From an uncultured Actinomycetota bacterium (GTDB taxonomy: Bacteria; Actinomycetota; Actinomycetes; Streptosporangiales; Streptosporangiaceae): a stretch of DNA of 64,000 nucleotides. Positions 34,401 to 44,510 of this stretch are shown here, piece after piece. The position numbers and the translations under genes were made by a program. The notes beneath the pieces are model-generated. The model searched no databases, was not told where the DNA came from, and saw nothing but the letters and a program-made list of their open reading frames with translations. Position 1 is the first letter of the stretch. Each line of letters begins with the position of its first letter. The stretch lies in the NCBI GenBank assembly GCA_963730085.1, contig CAVSQI010000012.1, positions 14,466 to 78,465 on the forward strand, given 5' to 3'.

Positions 34401-35783
34401 ATGCGCACGAATGTGGGGATGGCCCGTCGCCGGTCGATGCGCTGGCGTCTTGATGACCACCGCGACCCGGGCGTCGGCTTCCGCCCGGGGGAGTTACCCG
34501 CTGGGCTCGCTACCGCGGCGATCGTGGGCCAGCTTCTGTTCGCTCCCGTGATGCTGCTCGGTGCCATGGCGCTGGTCATCGTCGGCCGCGTGTCCCGCTG
34601 GCGCCCAACTTGGCTCGCGGTGACGACGGCCGCCAGCGTCATCTGGTTATTCGCTAGCGGGCTGCTTCCGCCTGTGGCCGCATTCACGGCGGGGTCACAC
34701 CACTTAGCCAGCTTCGTCCTGGCAGCCGCAACCCACCCGCGAATGTTCGCCCATCCTGGTGTGGTGGTCGCGAAGGCGGCCCAGTGGTCGGCGATGGGGC
34801 TGCTCGTTGCGATCGTCGCCGCGTGTGCCGAGGCGTGGCTCGTGCTGTGGCTTGGCTGGTGGCGGCCGGGCGCGCGGTCGGAATCCCGGTGGGTGTGGCG
34901 GCCCGGCCTCGTAGCTGCCGTGCGCCGCCGGATGTCCGCGGCGGCGCTCAGAGCCGGGCACACAGGCACTCGCGACGGGTGCGCCGTCGGCGTCGCGACC
35001 GAGACCGGCAAGCTAGCGAGCTTCACGTGGGCGGAAGCCATGCACGGCGTACTCCTGACGGGCGCAGACCGCGACGTATCGGGCCTCGCGATTACGTGCG
35101 CAGCGCTCAGGCGCCGCAAGACCGTAGTAGTCCTCGGGTGCGCTGGCCTGTGCGCGGATGCTGGCGCGAACGGCGACCGCGATGCCGTGGCTGACCGCGT
35201 GGTCCGGCTCGCACGATCCTTCAACGTTCCTGTCATCGTGGCCGGCGCTGGCTCCGCTGCTGCGGCCATCGGCCGCGCCATCCGCCGCCGGGAGGCCGTC
35301 CTGATCGCCGCACCCACCGGAGCGCAGGACATGGACAAGATCCGATGCGCCGCCGCCGACCTGACCACGGTGCTCAGCGGCCTGCGGGATCTGGGGTTGC
35401 GGGCCGACTGCCTAGCCTGGCTCGACGGTGTCGAGCTCTTGGATCCCGCGAGCGTGCGCGAGTTGCAGGCGCTCGCCCCGCTGACTGGCGTCGGCATGGT
35501 TTTGAGCACGGCGGATTCCGCCGCCGCCGCGCAGCTGGCGGCCACCACCGCCGTGCTAGCCATCGGCCAGCCCGTCGGCATCGACCTCGAGGTCGCCTTG
35601 GCGGCCCGCCTGCGCGATACGGGCGGATGGGCGCCAGATCCAATCTGGCGCCCAATGAAACAACGCCGGCGCGGGGCTCGCCCGGGCGGGGTCACGATGA
35701 TCGCTTCCTCGTCCGGTCTCGGCGGCTCGCCACGCGCCATCACGCACTGCCGACTTCAGCCGATCACGCAGGCAGACTCGTGA
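34401..35783 (+). CDS. polytopic membrane protein with a degenerate coupling-protein/FtsK-like P-loop domain (component A)
   Basis: About 4 N-terminal TM helices. HGVLLTGADRDVSGLAITCAALRRRKTVVVLGCAG stands where a T4CP has H-hhhh-GxTGSGKT...hhhhDpKG. CLAWLDGVELL stands in place of hhhhDE. It starts 7 nt after the regulator stop. Confidence 0.5.
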   Translation: MRTNVGMARRRSMRWRLDDHRDPGVGFRPGELPAGLATAAIVGQLLFAPVMLLGAMALVIVGRVSRWRPTWLAVTTAASVIWLFASGLLPPVAAFTAGSHHLASFVLAAATHPRMFAHPGVVVAKAAQWSAMGLLVAIVAACAEAWLVLWLGWWRPGARSESRWVWRPGLVAAVRRRMSAAALRAGHTGTRDGCAVGVATETGKLASFTWAEAMHGVLLTGADRDVSGLAITCAALRRRKTVVVLGCAGLCADAGANGDRDAVADRVVRLARSFNVPVIVAGAGSAAAAIGRAIRRREAVLIAAPTGAQDMDKIRCAAADLTTVLSGLRDLGLRADCLAWLDGVELLDPASVRELQALAPLTGVGMVLSTADSAAAAQLAATTAVLAIGQPVGIDLEVALAARLRDTGGWAPDPIWRPMKQRRRGARPGGVTMIASSSGLGGSPRAITHCRLQPITQADS

Positions 35784-37789
35784 GCAGCGTGTGGCCACCA
35801 GTAACTCGAGGCCCGACCGCGCCCTGGCCGCCGCCACGCGGGCGGCTCAGGGCCGATCTGATCTACCTCGGCTGGCAGCCGGTCCCGGCCGTCGCCGAGC
35901 CCGTTCCGCCGCTTCGGCTGAAAGCGTCCGCCGAACCCGACGGCGTCAGCGCGGACTGGATCGCAGCCCAGCGTCGCGAATACAGCAGGCTCTCCCGGCC
36001 GAGCAGGGTGGGTGCCGCAGCCAGCGTCACGGTCGCTGGTGGAATCACCGCGGCCTGGCTGACGGGAGTCGTGGTAGGCGCGTTCGTCCCGCTCGGCGCT
36101 GTCGCGGCCGCGTGCGTAGCCGCCTGGTATGCGCATGCCAGCTGGCGCCAACGCAGGGTGCTCGGCGAGCAGCTGCGCGCCGAGGAACTGCGCGTGGCTG
36201 CGTTCGCCGACGCGCAGCGCAACCAGCTGGCGGCCACTGCGGCGCAGCACGCCCGCGAAGCCAGCGCCTGGAAGCAGCGAAGCACGGCGATGCGACTCCA
36301 GCCGCGCTGGTATCCCGTCACGATGCCGACGACGGTGCACCGCATCGATATAGCTGGCGGAACGCTCGCAGGGTGGTCCGCGGTCCTGACGATGATCGCC
36401 GCACCCCGGCTCGCGGCCGGGGCCGAGGTGACGGTGCTGGATCTCACCGAAGGTGGCGTCGCGACCGACCTCCTCGCGGTCGCTCGCGGGGGCGGGGTCG
36501 CTCCGCTCGTCTGGGTATTGCCCGGCGACCTTCCGCAGCTCGACCTCGGCACGCAACTGGCGCCAGACATCCTGGCTGACGTTCTCGCCCAGACCGTCAA
36601 CGCCGCCGATGGCCCAGCCGGCCCGGGCGCAGCCGTTCGGGCCGACCCGGCCGGCGACGCGGCCCTGATCGCAGGCGTCTTCCAGGCGCTCGGCGGCAAC
36701 GCCACGATGCCGCAGCTAATCGCCGCTTTGCGGGCGCTCGGACAGATCGGCGGTCCAGCGGAGCACCTTGGCCGTGGCGGCCTCGCGCACAACCAGCTGG
36801 CTAGCTTGACCAACCTCGCCGGCCGAGCCGCTGGGCACCTCGCCGCCGAACGGGCCTGGGCCATCGAGGCGCGACTGCGCGCACTCGCGGCGCTGGGAAC
36901 GTCGGCCGTGAGCGTGCCAGCCAGTCGGCTGACGGTGGCCTGGCTCGACCGGCGCGCAGCTGTCGTGACCAACGCAGCGATCAGGGCCTATCTGGCGATC
37001 GCGCTGACGGCGGCGCTTCGGCAGGCGCCTGCGGGCACGTTCTGGCAGCGGACGATCTGCCTGCTCGGCGCTGAGCGACTGCCAGGCGGCGTCCTGGACC
37101 GGCTGTGCGACGCCGCCGAAGTCGCGGGCGCCGGGCTCGTCCTTTGTTACCGCTCGATTCCGCCGCACGTGCGGGAGCGGCTTGGCCGCGGCGACGCCGC
37201 GGTGGGATTCATGCGGCTCGGGAACGCTGACGACGCCCGGTTCGCGGCCGAGCACATCGGAACCGAGCATCGGTTCGTCGTGAGCCAGCTAACCGACACC
37301 GTCGGGTCGTCCGTCACCGACACGCTCGGCATGTCTTACACCAGCACCGTCGGCACGGCCGACTCCGTCACCGGCTCGGACTCGGTCACGCAGACTGCTG
37401 GCCGCAGTCGCGGCCGCCGGACCGGCGCCGTCGGGCCGTCGCCGATCGCCGACGTGAGCGGATCGGCCAGCCTGGATACCAGCGCGTCAGCCGCCGTCTG
37501 CGACTCGCGGTCTATCACCGCCGGTATCAGCACCGGCACGTCCTGGGGCTGGACGACGTCTCGTGCCATCGGCGGCACCGACTCGGCGGGCATGACTATG
37601 CAGCGGTCCCGCGAATCGCTCGTCGAGCAGCACGAGCTTCAGCAGCTACCGCAGAGCGCGGTACTGCTGTGCTACCCGGGACCGGGCGGTCGTGAGGTCC
37701 GACTGGCTGATGCCAATCCGGCCATCATCGGGCTGCCGACCGCGACGCTGGCAGCCCGGCCGCCCCTGCGTGCAGTCTGGCCATCGTGA
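35780..37789 (+). CDS. TraG/VirD4-like coupling-protein homolog with eroded Walker motifs (component B)
   Basis: The GTG start overlaps the stop of A (GTGA). It has a two-TM hairpin and a coiled coil. RIDIAGGTLAGWSAVL...EVTVLDLTEG replaces Walker A, and TICLLGAERL replaces Walker B. The C-terminus RLGNADDARFAAEHIGTE, a Ser/Thr/Gly-rich tract, then LPQSAVLLCYPG resembles T4CP tails. Confidence 0.5.
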   Translation: MSSVWPPVTRGPTAPWPPPRGRLRADLIYLGWQPVPAVAEPVPPLRLKASAEPDGVSADWIAAQRREYSRLSRPSRVGAAASVTVAGGITAAWLTGVVVGAFVPLGAVAAACVAAWYAHASWRQRRVLGEQLRAEELRVAAFADAQRNQLAATAAQHAREASAWKQRSTAMRLQPRWYPVTMPTTVHRIDIAGGTLAGWSAVLTMIAAPRLAAGAEVTVLDLTEGGVATDLLAVARGGGVAPLVWVLPGDLPQLDLGTQLAPDILADVLAQTVNAADGPAGPGAAVRADPAGDAALIAGVFQALGGNATMPQLIAALRALGQIGGPAEHLGRGGLAHNQLASLTNLAGRAAGHLAAERAWAIEARLRALAALGTSAVSVPASRLTVAWLDRRAAVVTNAAIRAYLAIALTAALRQAPAGTFWQRTICLLGAERLPGGVLDRLCDAAEVAGAGLVLCYRSIPPHVRERLGRGDAAVGFMRLGNADDARFAAEHIGTEHRFVVSQLTDTVGSSVTDTLGMSYTSTVGTADSVTGSDSVTQTAGRSRGRRTGAVGPSPIADVSGSASLDTSASAAVCDSRSITAGISTGTSWGWTTSRAIGGTDSAGMTMQRSRESLVEQHELQQLPQSAVLLCYPGPGGREVRLADANPAIIGLPTATLAARPPLRAVWPS

Positions 37790-37821: not shown

Positions 37822-38652
37822 ATGCTGAGACAGTTCCGCGAGGTGGACGTCTTCACCGACGTGCCGTACCAGGGCAACCCGCTAGCGGTTGTGCTCGGGG
37901 CTGACGGCCTGACCACTGAGCAGATGCAGCGGTTCGCCAACTGGACCAACCTGTCAGAGACCACGTTTGTCCTTGAGCCGAACGCCAGTGCGGCGGATTA
38001 CCGGGTGCGGATCTTCACGCCAAGCCAGGAACTGCCGTTCGCCGGCCATCCGACGCTCGGTACGTGTCATGCCTGGCTGGAAGCTGGTGGCGCACCGCGC
38101 ATCCGCGGAGTGATGATTCAGCAGTGCGAAGCGGGGCTCGTGACCGTCAGCGCCGACGAAGACGGCTTGAAGTTTGGCGCGCCCCCGCTCATCCGCTCGG
38201 GTCCAGTGGATGAGCAGCTCGCCCGGCACATCGCGGAGATACTCGGGGTCAGTCGCGACGAGATCGTCGACGTGCAGTGGGCCGACAATGGCCCGGGCTG
38301 GATCGCCGTACTTCTCGCCAGCGCCGACGCCGTACTCGCGGTCAAGCCTGGGCCGACCGACTTGGATCTCGGCATCGCCGGGGCTTACCCACCCGGTGGG
38401 CCAGCGGCGTTTGAGGTGCGTGCCTTCGTGCCGAAGAACGGCAGCACAGACGAGGATCCCGTCACCGGCAGCCTCAATGCCTCGCTAGCGCAATGGCTGA
38501 TCGCCACCGGCCGCGCCGACCCGCCGTATGTGGTCAGACAAGGAACTGCCCTGGGCCGCCGTGGCCTCGTGCGGATTTCTACCGACGCCGACGGCCAGGT
38601 CTGGGTTGGCGGCGGCACCATCACGTGCGTCTCTGGCACGGTGGACATCTAA
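37822..38652 (+). CDS. PhzF family isomerase
   Basis: Contains MLRQFREVDVFTDVPYQGNPLAVVLGADGLTTEQMQRFANWTNLSETTFV...FAGHPTLGT...EDPVTGSLNASLAQW. Confidence 0.85.
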   Translation: MLRQFREVDVFTDVPYQGNPLAVVLGADGLTTEQMQRFANWTNLSETTFVLEPNASAADYRVRIFTPSQELPFAGHPTLGTCHAWLEAGGAPRIRGVMIQQCEAGLVTVSADEDGLKFGAPPLIRSGPVDEQLARHIAEILGVSRDEIVDVQWADNGPGWIAVLLASADAVLAVKPGPTDLDLGIAGAYPPGGPAAFEVRAFVPKNGSTDEDPVTGSLNASLAQWLIATGRADPPYVVRQGTALGRRGLVRISTDADGQVWVGGGTITCVSGTVDI

Positions 38653-38715: not shown

Positions 38716-41700
38716 ATGGCAGCGGAGTCAGGCATCGGTGGCGGCGCGGCCGGGCTCTGGTATCGCGTCCAGGCTGTCAGCCAGCGCAGCCTCGGTGGCG
38801 GCGCCGATGGCGACTATGCCTCGGTGCTGCCTGCTGCCCTGAACGCGGCCCGGCATCGGTTGCCGTTCATCGCTGGCTGGCTGTCGCTGGGTGGCGGCGC
38901 CCCGCTCGAGCTCGTCACTAATGCTGGCCCGCTGCCCGCCCCAGGGCTGCCTGCCCGGGCCCGGACGGCTGACAACGCCGACAACGCCGACGGCGCCGAC
39001 AGAGCCGATGGGGCCGATGGGGCCGCTGATCCCGCCCACAAAGCTGACGCGGGCGCCCTCAGGCCGATAAGCCGCCGAGGCGCAGGCGAACCGTCGGTGG
39101 TGGCACCGGGCCGCGCCGCGGGCGAAGATCTGCTCTTCCCGTGGGGCGCCCGCGGCGTAGTCATCGACAGGAACATGCTCGCCGATCTTGACCAGCTTGT
39201 CTGGGCGCCGTGCCCGGGACGCCAGGTGGCTCTCGGCGCCGATGCCGTCGCGCGAGCCGCGCGAGCCGCTGGCCCGCCGGGACTGGGCCAGCCGACATTG
39301 TTCGAGTCCGCCCTCCAGACGGTGATGGGCAGGCCGTTTGGCTGGCTGATCGTGGCCGATCCGACCGACCTGCTCGATGCGGAAACCGTTGAGCTGCGCA
39401 ACCAGCTGACGGTGCTGCGCCAGTACGAGGACGAGCACGCACGGTTCGACGCCGACCGGATCCAGCGGCGGCTAGGCGAGCTGGACGCTTACCGCGAGGC
39501 CGGCCTGTGGAACGTCCGCGTCCTGGCCGGAGCCGCGACCGAGCAGGAGCTACGGCTGATCGCTCCGGTGCTGGTCGGCGCCGTTGACCTGAGCGCGCAT
39601 CCGTATCGGCTCCGGTGCCCCGACGGTGCCCAGGAGTTCGCCGACGTGCTGGCGGCCAGGACTGCCGACCCGGCGGACGGGTCCGCAGTCCCGTTTGCGG
39701 CTACCGCTGGGGTGCTCGTGGCGCTGACCGGCCTGCCGGAGCGAGAAGTGCCGGGCGTTCGGGTCATGCAACCCGGCTACTTCGACCTGACCAGCGAGAC
39801 GCCCGCCGGGCCGTCCATCGAGCTTGGAACCATCCTGGACGGCCAGGACCGGCCGGTCGGTGCCATGCGGATTCCACTGGCCACGCTCAACCGGCACGCG
39901 CTGGTCGCCGGGGCGACGGGCGCTGGCAAGTCGCAGACGGTGCGCCACGTGCTAGAACAACTGACCGGCGCCGGCGTCAGCTGGCTCGCAATCGAGCCGG
40001 TCAAGTCCGAATACGCCGTCATGGCGGCGCGCCTAGCCGGGACGGCAGAAGGTTCCGGAGTCGCCGCGGGTGGTGGCAGGTCGGTCACCATCATCAACCC
40101 GGCCGACCCGGAGTCGGTGCCGCTGTCGGTCAACCCGCTCGCGCCCGAGCCCGGCTACCCGGTCCAGGCGCATATCGACATGGTCCGCGCGCTGTTCCTG
40201 GCGGCGTTCGATGCCCCGGAGCCGTTCCCGCAGATCATGTCCCAAGCGCTGCAGCGCTGCTATGAGGAGTGCGGCTGGGATCCGCTGACGGGAGCCGGGC
40301 CGAGCCGATGTCGACGTCCCGCCCGCGGTGCCGACGCTGGCCAGGCTCCAGGCGGCGGCGCTCGCTGTGATCGAGGACGTGGGCTACGGCCGGGAACTGC
40401 AGGCCGACATGCGGGGCTTCGTCGACGTTCGGCTCAGGTCGCTACGGACCGGCTCGGCTGGCCGCTTCTTCGAGGGTGGTCACCCGGCGGACATCGCCGC
40501 GCTCCTGGATCGGAACGTGGTCCTCGCGCTCGAGGACGTCGCCAACGACGAGGACAAGGCGTTCGTGATCGGCACCTTGATCATCAGAATGGTCGAGCAC
40601 CTACGCCTGCGGTCGAAGACCGATCCGGCTGACGGCCTCCGGCACGTCGTCGTGCTCGAGGAAGCGCACCGGCTCCTGCGCGCGGGGCGGACGGGCGCGA
40701 GCGCGCACGCCGTGGAACTGTTCGCTGGCTTGCTCGCGGAAATCCGTGCCTACGGCGAAGGCGTCGTGATCGCCGAGCAGATCCCGGCCAAGCTCGTGCC
40801 CGACGCGATCAAGAACACTGCGCTGAAGGTGCTCCACAGGCTGCCGGCGGCTGACGACCGCCAGCTGGTGGGCGCCACCATGAACTTGGACGCCGAGCAG
40901 TCTCGCCAGGTGGTGTCCCTGGCGCCCGGCGAGGCGGCGGTCTTCGCCGATGGCATGGACCGGCCGATGCGGGTCCTGGTCCCGTTCGGTGGTGACCGCG
41001 AGCGCAGCCCGGGCGCCCTGATCAAGAGCGGCAACGCGCCGCTAGCTGGCCGGAGGTCGGCGGCGTGCGGCCGCGGTTGCACGGGCACGCGGCCGTGCAC
41101 GCTCGTCGAGATTCGGGCGGCCGACCTTGTGGCGAGATCGCCGGAGGACGCGTGGCTGCGCGTCTGGACCGAGGTGTACGTGCTGGCGCACCTGGTAAAC
41201 CAGCCCCGGCCGCGGGTGCCGGTGCCGCTGCGGCAGCGTTGGGCAGGCCTCGACGGTCGCCTGCGCGAATGTGCACTCGCGACGGCGATCGACGGCGCCG
41301 CTCTCGGCCGTGGTCAGGCCCTCCGCGAGTCATACGATCCGGCGAAGCTATCGGCGGCGTGTGCCGAATCGGCCACTGCGATGCTCGACGGCGGCAAGGG
41401 CGCCGGCACTCGGCCCGGCACGACGTGGGTGATTCCGCAGCTTCGGTGGCTCCATGAGCTAGAACGCGTCTGCCCGCACGACGGTCCCGCGCCGGATCCT
41501 TTCGCCGCGGCTCCTGCCCTCGACTACGGGCTGCCCGACCTCACCGACCGTGCCGATGTCAAGATCGGCCAGCGTGTCAGCGGCTTGCGTCGGCATCCGC
41601 TGTCGATGGAGGTGACGCGGAACCGGCTCATTGCCTGGACTGCGCTCCTCGGTGAGGACGATCAGCGCGCGTTCATCGAGGACCTCGCGTTCGTCGCCAT

Positions 41701-41860
41701 CGGCGTGAGCCATCGCGGTCAGCTTCGCAAAGCTGCTGGTGAAATGGGAGTGACCGGGTGGCTTGAGGCCGTGCTGTCCTGGCCCCGGCGCTTCATCGTC
41801 GGGTCGGACGACCAGGCGGCCAGTCTCGAGACCCGCGAGCCAGACCCAGTGGCCGGATAG
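38716..41860 (+). CDS. HerA/FtsK-superfamily (DUF87-like) ATPase, about 1040 aa (component C; frameshifted near 40297)
   Basis: RIPLATLNRHALVAGATGAGKSQTVRHVLEQL gives a HerA-type barrel-to-Walker-A transition. Walker B is LRHVVVLEEAHRLL. VVIAEQIPAKL is also present. The N-terminal approximately 420 aa and C-terminal approximately 270 aa have no motif I recognise. Confidence 0.7.
38971..39024 (+). repeat. 9-bp in-frame tandem repeat (6 units, Asp-x-Ala) in the ATPase N-terminal region
   Basis: GACAACGCC GACAACGCC GACGGCGCC GACAGAGCC GATGGGGCC GATGGGGCC encodes DNADNADGADRADGADGA. Confidence 0.85.
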
Positions 41861-41871
41861 CATCGGCCCAC

Positions 41872-43110
41872 ATGAGCAAGCTTCCGCTGCGCGCCCGCCT
41901 CGCGACGTCCCTGAGCGGGGCGGCGGGTCGCGTGTCCCGCATGACTGGCCGTGGCGACGGCTCGGTCATCGGTGGCGTGCTCGGCCTACGGGTCGAGCCT
42001 GAGCTGCTCCGGCTGCTGGCGGCCGATCGCCAGGTGGTGCTCGTCACCGGTACCAACGGCAAGACAACAACCACGCGGCTGATCACGGCCGCACTCGGCG
42101 CGCTCGGTCAGGACGTCGCCAGTAACGCGTTCGGTGCCAACATGGCGGCTGGCCTAGCCTCGGCGCTCGGCCGCTCTCCCGACGCGCCGTACGCCGTCCT
42201 GGAGACCGACGAGCGATACCTGCCAGCTGTCATCGAGGCCACGCACCCTCGGGTCGTGGTGTTGCTCAACCTGAGCCGAGACCAGATGGATCGTGCGGCC
42301 GAGATATGGCTCACGGCCCGGAGGTGGCGGCAAGCGCTCGCCATCGCGGAAGGCTGCGTCGTCGTCGCGAACGCCGACGATCCGCTGATCGCCTGGGCCG
42401 CATCGACGGCTCCCCGGGTGACGTGGGTCGCTGCTGGGCAGCGCTGGCATGAGGATTCCTGGTGCTGCCCCGAGTGCGGGTCGCATCTGCGGCGCGACGA
42501 GCTGGGCTGGCGATGCGGTGAGTGCGGTTTCGCGCGGCCCTCGACTCGATGGGTGCTGAGTGGCGACTCGGTCATCGACGAGTCCGGCCAGATGCGCGAG
42601 CTGGCCCTGGCCCTGCCGGGCCGGGCGAACGCGTCGAACGCGGTGATCGCGCTCGCCGTGGCGAGCCAGTTCGGCGCGACGGTCGACCAGGCACTGCCAC
42701 GCGTGCGCAGCGTCAAGTCCGTCGCGGGTCGCTACACCCAGGTGCAGCGGAACGGCAAGCTTGTCCGGCTGCTGCTGGCCAAGAACCCGGCCGGCTGGCT
42801 CGAGGCGTTCGACGTGCTCGCGCCGATCCCGGCGCCGGTCCTGCTCGCCGTCAACGCCCAGACGCCCGATGGCAAGGACACGTCGTGGCTGTGGGACGTC
42901 GACTATCGAGTGCTCATTGGCCGGCCTGTGTACGTCACCGGGGAACGCCGGATCGACCTTGCAGTCCGGCTGGAAGCAGATCAGGTTCCGTTCGAGCTTG
43001 TCGACGGCATCGACGATGCCGTCGGCCGGGTCATCGGCGGTGAACTTGACGTCATCGCCAATTACACGGCCTTTCAGCAGATCCGGGCAATAGTTGGCCG
43101 GACCGAGTGA
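41872..43110 (+). CDS. murT: lipid II isoglutaminyl synthase subunit MurT (Mur ligase family)
   Basis: Contains VVLVTGTNGKTTTTRLI, a Cys4 ribbon CCPECG...CGECG, and a DUF1727-like C-terminus DGKDTSWLWDVDY. gatD follows. Confidence 0.85.
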   Translation: MSKLPLRARLATSLSGAAGRVSRMTGRGDGSVIGGVLGLRVEPELLRLLAADRQVVLVTGTNGKTTTTRLITAALGALGQDVASNAFGANMAAGLASALGRSPDAPYAVLETDERYLPAVIEATHPRVVVLLNLSRDQMDRAAEIWLTARRWRQALAIAEGCVVVANADDPLIAWAASTAPRVTWVAAGQRWHEDSWCCPECGSHLRRDELGWRCGECGFARPSTRWVLSGDSVIDESGQMRELALALPGRANASNAVIALAVASQFGATVDQALPRVRSVKSVAGRYTQVQRNGKLVRLLLAKNPAGWLEAFDVLAPIPAPVLLAVNAQTPDGKDTSWLWDVDYRVLIGRPVYVTGERRIDLAVRLEADQVPFELVDGIDDAVGRVIGGELDVIANYTAFQQIRAIVGRTE

Positions 43111-43128: not shown

Positions 43129-43882
43129 ATGACCGAGCGCGTAGGCCGCCACGCCGCCGCCCACGGCCGGAGCAGCGCGCTCCGGCTCGTCTGGGTGTAT
43201 CCAGACCTGCTGAGCACGTACGGCGACCGCGGCAACTTGCTCGTGCTGACCCGCCGCGCCAGGCTTCGCGGTATCGAGGTCGAGGCCATCGAGGTGAACT
43301 CGGACCAGCCGGTTCCTCGCCAGGGCGATATCTACCTGCTCGGCGGCGGCGAGGACCTGCCACAGATCCTCGCTGCTAACAGGCTTCGTAACGACGGAGG
43401 CCTGGCGGCGGCCGCGCAGCAGGGTGCCGTCGTCTTCGCCGTCTGCGCGGGTTACCAGGTCATCGGCCGGACGTTCGGTGGCGTCGAGGGAGAGCCGGTC
43501 GATGGGCTGGACGTCCTGGACATCAGCAGCGGTCGGGGTGACAGGCGTGGCGTCGGCGAGCTGGTCGCCGACGTCGATCCGGCCCTGAGCGTGCCACGTT
43601 TCACCGGCTTTGAGAATCATCAGGGCGTGACGCAGGTCGGTCCGGCGGCCCGGCCGCTCGCGCAGGTCACGCTTGGCGTCGGCAACGGCGACGGAACCGA
43701 GGGCGCGTACGCGGGCAAGATACTCGGCACGTACATGCACGGTCCGGCGCTCGCGCGCAACCCTGGCCTGGCCGACCTGCTGCTCAGCTGGGCGGCCGGG
43801 CAGCCTGGCGCCGCTGGATCCAGATGCCGAAGAGTGGGCGAGCCAGCTGCGGGCCGAGCGGCTCGCGGCAGTCGGCGGGTAG
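43129..43882 (+). CDS. gatD: lipid II isoglutaminyl synthase glutaminase subunit GatD (frameshifted near 43803)
   Basis: Contains YPDLLSTYGDRGN...YLLGGGED...VFAVCAGYQVIG...GFENHQG...TYMHGPALARNP. The C-terminus LAPLDPDAEEWASQLRAERLAAVGG continues in the next frame. Confidence 0.8.
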
Positions 43883-43896
43883 CAGCCGGCCGGCGT

Positions 43897-44262
43897 CAGT
43901 ACACGAGCGCTTGTGCGCCGTCGGCCAGGATCTCCGCTACGAACGTCGCGGCGCCAGCGATCCGTACGCCAGGTGACGACGTCATCAGTGGTGATGTCGC
44001 GTCGGGCCGCGCACTGCGTGCACAGCGTCACCGTTCCACCGTCCAGCACGGTAGCGAACAACTCCGGCAGCGGGGTTGCGTGCGGCAGGGCCAGATCCGG
44101 GCATCCATCCGGCAGGGCCAGCCAGGACGCCTCGCCGGTGAGCCACAGCGACACCGGAACGCCGCTGACAACGGCGGCGGCGGCCACGGTGAGCGCCTGG
44201 TTGCAGCGCTCAGGCTCGTCCTTGCCGATTGTCACCTTCACTACCAGCGAGCGCGAGGGCAT
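43897..44262 (-). CDS. DsrE/DsrF-like sulfur-relay family protein (frameshifted near 43975)
   Basis: Contains SLVVKVTIGKDEPERCNQALTVAAAAVVSGVPVSLWLTGEASWL...VTLCTQCAARRDITTDDV. PGVRIAGAATFVAEILADGAQALVY* then follows in another frame. This is the 5' part of the spurious 736-aa antisense ORF. Confidence 0.6.
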
Positions 44263-44354
44263 GGACTGCACACTAGCGCGACCTCGGGCGCCGTCCGCCT
44301 GCGGCCGCGTGGCAGCCGTGCGATCGCGACGTACGCTGCCTACACTGCCCAGGC

Positions 44355-44510
44355 ATGACGGCAATGCTGAGCGGCGTCATCGTGATGGCCGCCTTCGGCT
44401 TGGTAGCCGCGGCCAGCCTGATCCTGCTCGTGTCGCTCTACCGGATCAGCGGCCGTCGCGGTGCCGGATCCGACGGCGATACTGGCCAGGTCGACCCGGA
44501 AGGCGGTTAG
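44355..44510 (+). CDS. hypothetical 51-aa single-TM protein
   Basis: MTAMLSGVIVMAAFGLVAAASLILLVSLYRISGRRGAGSDGDTGQVDPEGG. High GC3. It lies directly upstream of the nitrobindin-like gene. Confidence 0.3.
   Translation: MTAMLSGVIVMAAFGLVAAASLILLVSLYRISGRRGAGSDGDTGQVDPEGG

Follow-up and report, generated by a model that had tools for sequence, protein, structure and literature searches.

A DUF8350-family ATPase with a four-cysteine C-terminal domain, a candidate type IV secretion-derived translocation motor in Streptosporangiaceae

We examined a stretch of 64,000 nucleotides (nt) of contig CAVSQI010000012.1 (positions 14,466 to 78,465, forward strand; assembly GCA_963730085.1) from an uncultured Actinomycetota bacterium of the family Streptosporangiaceae. 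This whole stretch is called the window below. The gene of interest lies at window positions 38716-41860 on the plus strand and encodes a HerA-like ATPase of ~1045 amino acids (aa), the reading frame of which is divided by one surplus base at about 40289-40291. Two plus-strand open reading frames (ORFs), 38716..40632 and 40328..41860, overlap in different frames and jointly make up one protein. A first-pass annotation, made by a model from the sequence alone, had described a HerA-like central part between two long flanking regions. That three-part layout stands with its limits shifted: the N-terminal domain covers aa ~1-365 rather than 420, the ATPase ~366-770 and the C-terminal domain approximately the last 285 aa. 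The features of the gene are:

38716..39810, plus strand: N-terminal domain (aa 1-365), DUF8350, with a predicted fold like that of the VirB4/TrwK N-terminal domain (AlphaFold model, Foldseek, VIA-align, PF27615 on orthologues)
38938..39120, plus strand: disordered linker of variable length within the N-terminal domain, with an (Asp-x-Ala) repeat at 38971-39024 (low model confidence over aa 99-132; gapped and variable among orthologues)
39910..39933, plus strand: Walker A motif, GATGAGKS (G, K and S invariant in the family alignment)
40289..40291, plus strand: site of the single-base insertion that divides the reading frame, between Walker A and Walker B (this stretch is one base shorter in seven orthologues)
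40304..40996, plus strand: remaining half of the ATPase domain, holding Walker B (VVVLEEAH, 40646-40669) and a conserved AEQIPAKL at 40772-40795 (NCBIfam CedD/HerA models, hhalign)
40997..41860, plus strand: family-specific, all-helical C-terminal domain with four conserved cysteines (codons at 41066, 41078, 41096 and 41270; structure model and family alignment)

Frame 1 runs to GWDPLTGAG (through ...QRCYEECGWDPLTGAG) and then turns into Arg/Gly-rich nonsense, and frame 2 picks up at RADVDVPPAVPTLARLQ. In a DNA alignment, seven of seven orthologous genes are one base shorter within GGAGCCGGGCCGAGCC, which makes the break a +1 insertion within a short run of G/C. The intact frames of three relatives map onto frames 1 and 2 of the window with the junction at 40298-40299. 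The single frameshift that the first-pass annotation had placed between 40289 and 40305 is thus confirmed as a feature of the assembly. Every peptide it quoted was recovered in the window translation: PFGWLIVADP... at aa 207, LTGLPEREVPGVRV at aa 337-350 and CGRGCTGTRPC at nt 41066-41098.

The break is most likely an assembly or sequencing error and not an inactivation, because the insertion is peculiar to this assembly, the orthologues are intact, constraint is kept and many similar breaks occur in the window. The orthologues are single open frames of ~1000-1100 aa in 21 of 24 congeners, or in 20 of 23 when the unpublished genome G011 is left out. The window copy retains each of the 70 residues found to be invariant among 22 diverse members of the family. 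Pairwise ratios of nonsynonymous to synonymous substitution rates against three orthologues are 0.09-0.13 downstream of the break and 0.15-0.18 upstream of it, and there is therefore no decay past the break. Measured against the intact frames of three relatives, the 64-kb window contains ~12 frame switches, and the tests in the opposite direction gave 0-3. Three of the switches fall in the gene for glutamyl-tRNA reductase (hemA); others affect a hemD/cobA fusion, pstS, pstB and proline dehydrogenase. Since hemA alone carries three frameshifts, the genome is likelier to be mis-assembled than mutant, and the assembly seems prone to single-base indels. The alternative is that the frameshift is genuine and that the gene has recently become a pseudogene in this organism. 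The break is there in the assembly, it parts Walker A from Walker B, so that a real break would abolish activity, and broken frames also occur in a few congeners (G017, G005 and G021). Set against this are the dozen or so comparable breaks in 64 kb, three of them in a haem-biosynthesis gene, the position of the insertion in a short G/C run, and the unrelaxed constraint and complete set of invariant residues. We consider a pseudogene improbable. For annotation, the lesson is that apparent pseudogenes in an assembly with frequent single-base indels should not be taken at face value.

The core is, from its sequence, a predicted HerA-clade P-loop ATPase with Walker A and B intact, and the earlier description of it as HerA/DUF87-like holds. 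In the first fragment, DUF87 (25.4 bits, cut-off 23.2) and HerA_C (39.9 bits, cut-off 22) both pass their Pfam cut-offs, and all 22 aligned relatives match the two families. For the second fragment, the matches are to HerA/CedD models of NCBIfam and PADLOC. The best NCBIfam match is the archaeal DNA-translocating ATPase CedD (E 9.6e-12); the equivalog cut-off of that model (NF053655) was missed, with 44.3 and 17.2 bits against 600. Aligned with a VirB4 profile by hhalign, the ATPase is matched over the whole domain, including a helical insert (probability 89.5%, E 2e-6, 281 columns). No NurA-like Pfam match was found in the neighboring genes.

The N-terminal region belongs to DUF8350 (PF27615), going by precomputed PF27615 matches on orthologues (72-93% identity) and on distant relatives found with the N-terminal 365 aa of the window protein. 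A search of residues 1-365 against 1.8 billion representative sequences matched only 225 proteins, and the full-length ones are all ~960-1080 aa. PF27615 and DUF8350 are not mentioned in the literature searched. An AlphaFold model of the region, built from a 50-sequence alignment (A3), has a predicted local distance difference test score (pLDDT) of 83.8 and a predicted template modelling score of 0.81, with disorder confined to the linker at aa 99-132 (pLDDT <50). All of the top Foldseek matches of the model come from TrwK/VirB4 of plasmid R388, with a probability as high as 0.98 and E 0.016. With VIA-align against 48,161 Protein Data Bank (PDB) representatives, TrwK is the sole match with Z >=8 (Z 10.7 over 223 residues, model 2-344 against chain 33-400); five TrwK entries give Z 10.1-10.9 over 217-236 residues at root-mean-square deviations of 3.8-5.3. 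Matches other than TrwK have Z 7.3 or less and cover the helical hairpin 217-264 only. HerA structures are absent among the fold matches of residues 1-365, where the model ended. Neighbors of the domain by protein-language-model features are DUF8128 clusters only, at 0.88-0.89, which is below the trust level.

The N-terminal region thus looks to have the fold of the VirB4 N-terminal domain in the predicted model. In R388 this domain joins protomers to one another and makes contact with VirB3 and VirB8 at the membrane (PMC12857230), and the region in the window protein looks like a docking domain and not an effector. The first-pass annotation had proposed a candidate effector or sensor here. 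Against that proposal, the region is a catalogued domain and its predicted fold matches only the VirB4/TrwK N-terminal domain; in addition, no defense effector is adjacent to the gene, which is syntenic across the genus and in neighboring families, unlike a defense island. The combination of a HerA-clade core with a VirB4-like N-terminal domain has a precedent in the HerA-clade ATPases CedB and CedD of Sulfolobales, whose N-terminal domains are structurally homologous to that of VirB4 (PMC11868833).

The last 287 aa yield a confident all-helical model (pLDDT 87.3). In the PDB, Foldseek gave nothing better than E >0.3 and VIA-align over all representatives a best Z of 5.8; in the ESM Atlas, matches were confined to fragments of the same family. 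Of the two flanks that had seemed unlike known domains, then, the N-terminal one proved to be DUF8350 with a VirB4-like predicted fold and the C-terminal one is still without a known match. As modelled, it is a new four-cysteine helical domain with no known fold. The Cys cluster CGRGCTGTRPC pointed out in the first-pass annotation is real, and it is kept in nearly all full-length relatives checked. A C-x3-C-x4/5-C motif followed by a fourth Cys 54-71 residues on is found in 21 of 22 diverse relatives. Of 120 close full-length homologues checked, 119 have the Cys motif, as do most of the additional distant ones. In one protein, P0158, all four Cys are lost together (a single row, checked in the alignment), as expected for one metal site; two further distant relatives are without the C-x3-C-x4/5-C motif. 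From this pattern the four Cys probably form a metal site, for Zn or Fe-S. The domain lacks a structural precedent, and it offers a simple target for biochemistry.

In the genus the order is a GntR-like regulator, A, B, PhzF, the ATPase gene, murT and gatD, and the features around the ATPase gene are:

34401..35783, plus strand: partner A, another membrane protein, restricted to this lineage, with a region that resembles a degenerate P-loop (transmembrane segments; present in the genus and in locus L014)
35790..37789, plus strand: partner B, a membrane protein that resembles type IV coupling proteins and is without Walker motifs; its true start is uncertain (conserved neighbor; language-model features)
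37822..38652, plus strand: PhzF-family gene between B and the ATPase gene (Pfam PhzC-PhzF, 2e-54)
41872..43110, plus strand: murT, starting 11 nt past the ATPase stop and followed by gatD (Pfam MurT_C, Mur_ligase_M)

A B-like gene lies beside the ATPase gene in nearly every locus examined, in several families, and may be upstream, downstream or divergent; the divergent one, in L034, was recovered by hhalign only. By protein-language-model features, the nearest named clusters to B are type IV coupling protein (T4CP) families, with scores of 0.92-0.93. Profile searches of the PDB and Pfam with B were without a match, and other residues stand at its Walker motif positions. Both B and, in this lineage, A have the look of type IV coupling proteins that are catalytically dead. 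A was considered as a paralogue of B, and this was rejected because profile similarity is absent. PADLOC has no matches for A, B or the regulator.

In a distant subfamily (29-46% identity) the module consists of a small protein with DUF2510 and transmembrane segments, then B, then the ATPase. The next gene encodes a protein with a strongly acidic Pro/Glu/Asp-rich leader and a variable C-terminal part. In 8 of the 9 candidate cargoes, the net charge of the leader over 200 aa lies between -17 and -78. ADP-ribosyltransferase toxins occur at two independent loci, L025 and L057, and the other heads found in relatives are a colicin-D with an immunity gene and a calpain-like protease followed by DUF6406. 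Putative pairs of a toxin and a small partner beside the ATPase gene, with extremely acidic Pro/Glu-rich leaders, are:

L057:12341-13962: ADP-ribosyltransferase
L025:14172-15612: ADP-ribosyltransferase
L029:12430-14159: calpain-like protease with DUF6406

An acidic leader joined to an interchangeable toxin head is the signature of a polymorphic toxin system, and these genes are candidates for one. Alarmone-synthetase toxins of Streptomyces that have no signal peptides co-occur with TrwB-, TrwK- and TrwI-like genes (PMC12691689).

We put a probability of roughly 0.55 on the reading that the gene encodes one intact ~1045-aa protein, divided by a consensus error in the assembly, and that this protein is a type IV secretion-derived translocation motor that works with dead coupling-protein-like membrane partners. 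The DUF8350-family protein of mycelial actinobacteria would be a hexameric P-loop motor of the HerA clade. Its VirB4-type N-terminal domain, with the fold that VirB4 uses to dimerize and to dock on membrane components, would dock the motor to B and, here, also to A. The ATPase and B/A would together form a minimal type IV secretion-derived translocon in which the ATPase supplies ATP hydrolysis. In distant relatives the cargo would likely be the neighboring protein with an acidic leader and a toxin head; in the lineage of the window, the module fronts murT-gatD, with no cargo gene adjacent. What the data show is the gene structure, the predicted domain folds, the conservation, the link to the partner and the toxin neighborhoods of relatives; we infer the docking to A and B, export as the activity, metal binding and the leader as an export signal.

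Compared with VirB4/TrwK (R388 TrwK; PDB 7o42, 7o43, 8rtd, 8rtb), the window protein has the same layout of a large N-terminal domain followed by a P-loop domain of the FtsK/HerA superfamily, its predicted N-terminal fold can be laid over TrwK residues ~33-400 (Z 10-11), the VirB4 profile can be aligned to its ATPase, and it is paired with a coupling-protein-like partner. It differs in failing PF03135, in having no detectable sequence similarity in the N-terminal domain, in an ATPase that is closer to HerA in sequence and in the addition of a ~285-aa four-Cys C-terminal domain; moreover, the partner has no ATPase motifs, and no VirB3, VirB6, VirB8 or pilin genes were recognized nearby by Pfam. 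CedB and CedD of the crenarchaeal Ced DNA import system (PMC11868833) likewise join a HerA-clade ATPase to a homologue of the VirB4 N-terminal domain. They are archaeal, however, and each has part of that domain, often with a transmembrane helix, whereas the window protein has the whole domain and no such helix. Their partners are CedA and pilins as opposed to a dead T4CP-like protein, and Ced proteins are without the four-Cys domain. HerA proteins, including those of SIR2-HerA and DUF4297-HerA (PDB 8wiv, 8xau, 4d2i), share the P-loop domain that passes DUF87/HerA_C and give the best PDB sequence matches (E 1e-9). Unlike them, the window gene has no NurA, SIR2 or nuclease partner recognized by Pfam, carries an extra C-terminal domain and keeps a conserved chromosomal position, and the only large fold match of its N-terminal region is VirB4. 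The TrwB/TrwK/TrwI-like clusters of Streptomyces (Ahmad et al., 2025; PMC12691689) are probably modules of this sort as well, with VirB4-like and T4CP-like genes by a toxin without a Sec signal. That paper raises a possible link to type IV secretion in passing. The window copy differs from these clusters in having no toxin neighbor, in its two coupling-protein-like genes and in its murT-gatD neighborhood.

Several observations weigh against the motor reading. It is by structure only that the N-terminal domain is tied to VirB4, through a predicted model and at 8-9% identity. An hhalign comparison of the domain (A3) with the VirB4 profile, which is alphaproteobacterial and of low diversity, returned nothing (probability 0.6%). 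The profile is low in diversity because the seed contig, in an actinobacterial metagenome-assembled genome (MAG), proved to be a contaminant. PF03135 (CagE_TrbE_VirB) is unmatched in 22 family members at E up to 1, and in the whole genome. In sequence, the ATPase is nearer to HerA (PDB 8wiv, E 1e-9) than to VirB4 (4ag5, E 0.5). No Pfam matches of the VirB3, VirB6, VirB8 or pilin type were found in the window neighbors and ~30 related loci; the relatives hold small unclassified transmembrane proteins. A genome scan found no acidic-leader cargo near the gene, and the only two strongly acidic proteins genome-wide are both elsewhere. Genes of the toxin-antitoxin (TA) type (AbiEi-like, HipA-like, NADAR) also lie near copies in relatives and would fit a defense or TA context. 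The frameshift, finally, could be genuine.

Ced-type DNA pumping is the main rival to the motor reading as stated, and we rate it as unlikely. The motor would then move DNA, in uptake, transfer or septal clearance, by way of a membrane partner, as in CedB/CedD, conjugative VirB4/T4CP or FtsK-like pumps. The best NCBIfam match is the DNA-translocating CedD, and the architecture is that of CedB/CedD (PMC11868833); the score, however, is far under the cut-off (44 bits, with 600 required). There is a resemblance between the partner and DNA coupling proteins, but B is without the ATPase motifs that coupling proteins use. An integrase lies beside one relative, the family is limited to mycelial actinomycetes with large genomes, and no protein cargo was seen in this genome. 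On the other side, no relaxase, pilin or VirB6-like channel was seen near any copy examined, and the recurrent neighbors in relatives are of the toxin type and not DNA-processing.

A role in defense, the context raised by the first-pass annotation, is less likely still, and we give it little weight. The ATPase would sense infection and activate B or neighboring toxins, as in the SIR2-HerA or DUF4297-HerA anti-phage or abortive-infection systems. The PADLOC and PDB sequence matches are indeed defense-type HerA proteins, but they are limited to the shared P-loop core, with PADLOC matching P-loop segments only, at E 3e-11 at best. Toxin, AbiEi-like, HipA-like and NADAR genes occur near relatives; the toxins have long acidic leaders typical of exported polymorphic toxins, unlike compact TA toxins. 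No adjacent SIR2, nuclease or NurA partner was recognized by Pfam, and the N-terminal domain is VirB4-like and not an effector. The distribution across the class is patchy: the profile of the N-terminal domain is found in 25 of 401 sampled class genomes (13 of 175 genera), among them half of the sampled Streptosporangiaceae and a few other families with large genomes. Within the genus, however, the gene is syntenic in most congeners, as it is in other Streptosporangiales genera, by murT-gatD, unlike a variable defense island.

If the secretion-derived motor is real, it would show a re-use of DNA-pumping ATPases for protein export. Gram-positive soil actinomycetes export many toxins without a Sec signal, some by an unknown route, and a compact module of a VirB4-like ATPase with a dead coupling protein, beside interchangeable toxins with acidic leaders, may be that route. 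The window variant, without cargo and in front of murT-gatD, could reveal a second, non-antagonistic use of the same machine. A more speculative extension, which we regard as doubtful, is an undescribed secretion route of mycelial actinobacteria in which a motor like a DNA pump would thread proteins by a polyanionic leader that mimics DNA. Its core would be the DUF8350 ATPases with their dead coupling-protein partners, and it would descend from machinery for type IV secretion or DNA pumping. The four-Cys domain would act as an Fe-S or Zn gate, and in Streptosporangiaceae the toxin cargo would have disappeared and the module would have taken on housekeeping linked to the cell-wall operon murT-gatD.

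Downstream, the adjacency of the ATPase gene and murT is kept in the genus and also beyond it, in L033 (another genus of the same family) and L014 (a different family). No terminator-like site was found between the two genes on the plus strand, where the promoter and terminator scan is uninformative in GC-rich DNA. The ATPase gene and murT are probably co-transcribed. The PhzF gene is probably a passenger, since it is unmatched in L033 and L014, where there is also too little room for it between B and the ATPase gene.

The locus varies among relatives. In one congener (L013:4954-7590), sequence that matches the N-terminal part of A and all of B lies in one open frame of 878 aa. The A/B boundary in the window, with an odd C-terminal tail on A and, from 35345, a long extension at the upstream end of the B ORF, may therefore be affected by an indel as well. 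In another congener (L012:203-7817), a 7.6-kb insertion with ORFs of 1137 and 790 aa parts B from PhzF. One congener genome, seen in two contigs (L017 and L016), carries the orthologous locus without A and B (GntR-PhzF-ATPase-murT); the same genome has a second B-ATPase pair elsewhere, 37% identical, with a small DUF2510 protein, beside an HTH/NB-ARC/TPR regulator. A 1142-aa HerA-like ATPase in L015 (L015:2300-10692; 25% identical, with a comparable Cys motif) was not counted in this family and looks like part of another module; its gene comes after those for two dynamin-like GTPases and for a protein that weakly matches ALF repeats. The sole PF03135 VirB4 match among 301 sampled class genomes is on L049, a 1.9-kb contig of an actinobacterial MAG. 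It is 97% identical to VirB4 proteins of Rhodobacterales, and L049 is probably a contamination of that MAG.

The gatD ORF (window 43129-44358) encodes 409 aa, compared with a stretch of ~225 aa that aligns as GatD in relatives, and its tail is read in another frame by the relatives. The long ORF is probably the product of another indel that joins two reading frames. The ~11 frame switches of the window other than the one in the ATPase gene lie at approximately 10550, 13651, 32218, 44000, 47143, 55248, 55490, 55834, 57190, 60030 and 61137, and the genes that hold them are, besides those named above, an APH-type kinase and others.

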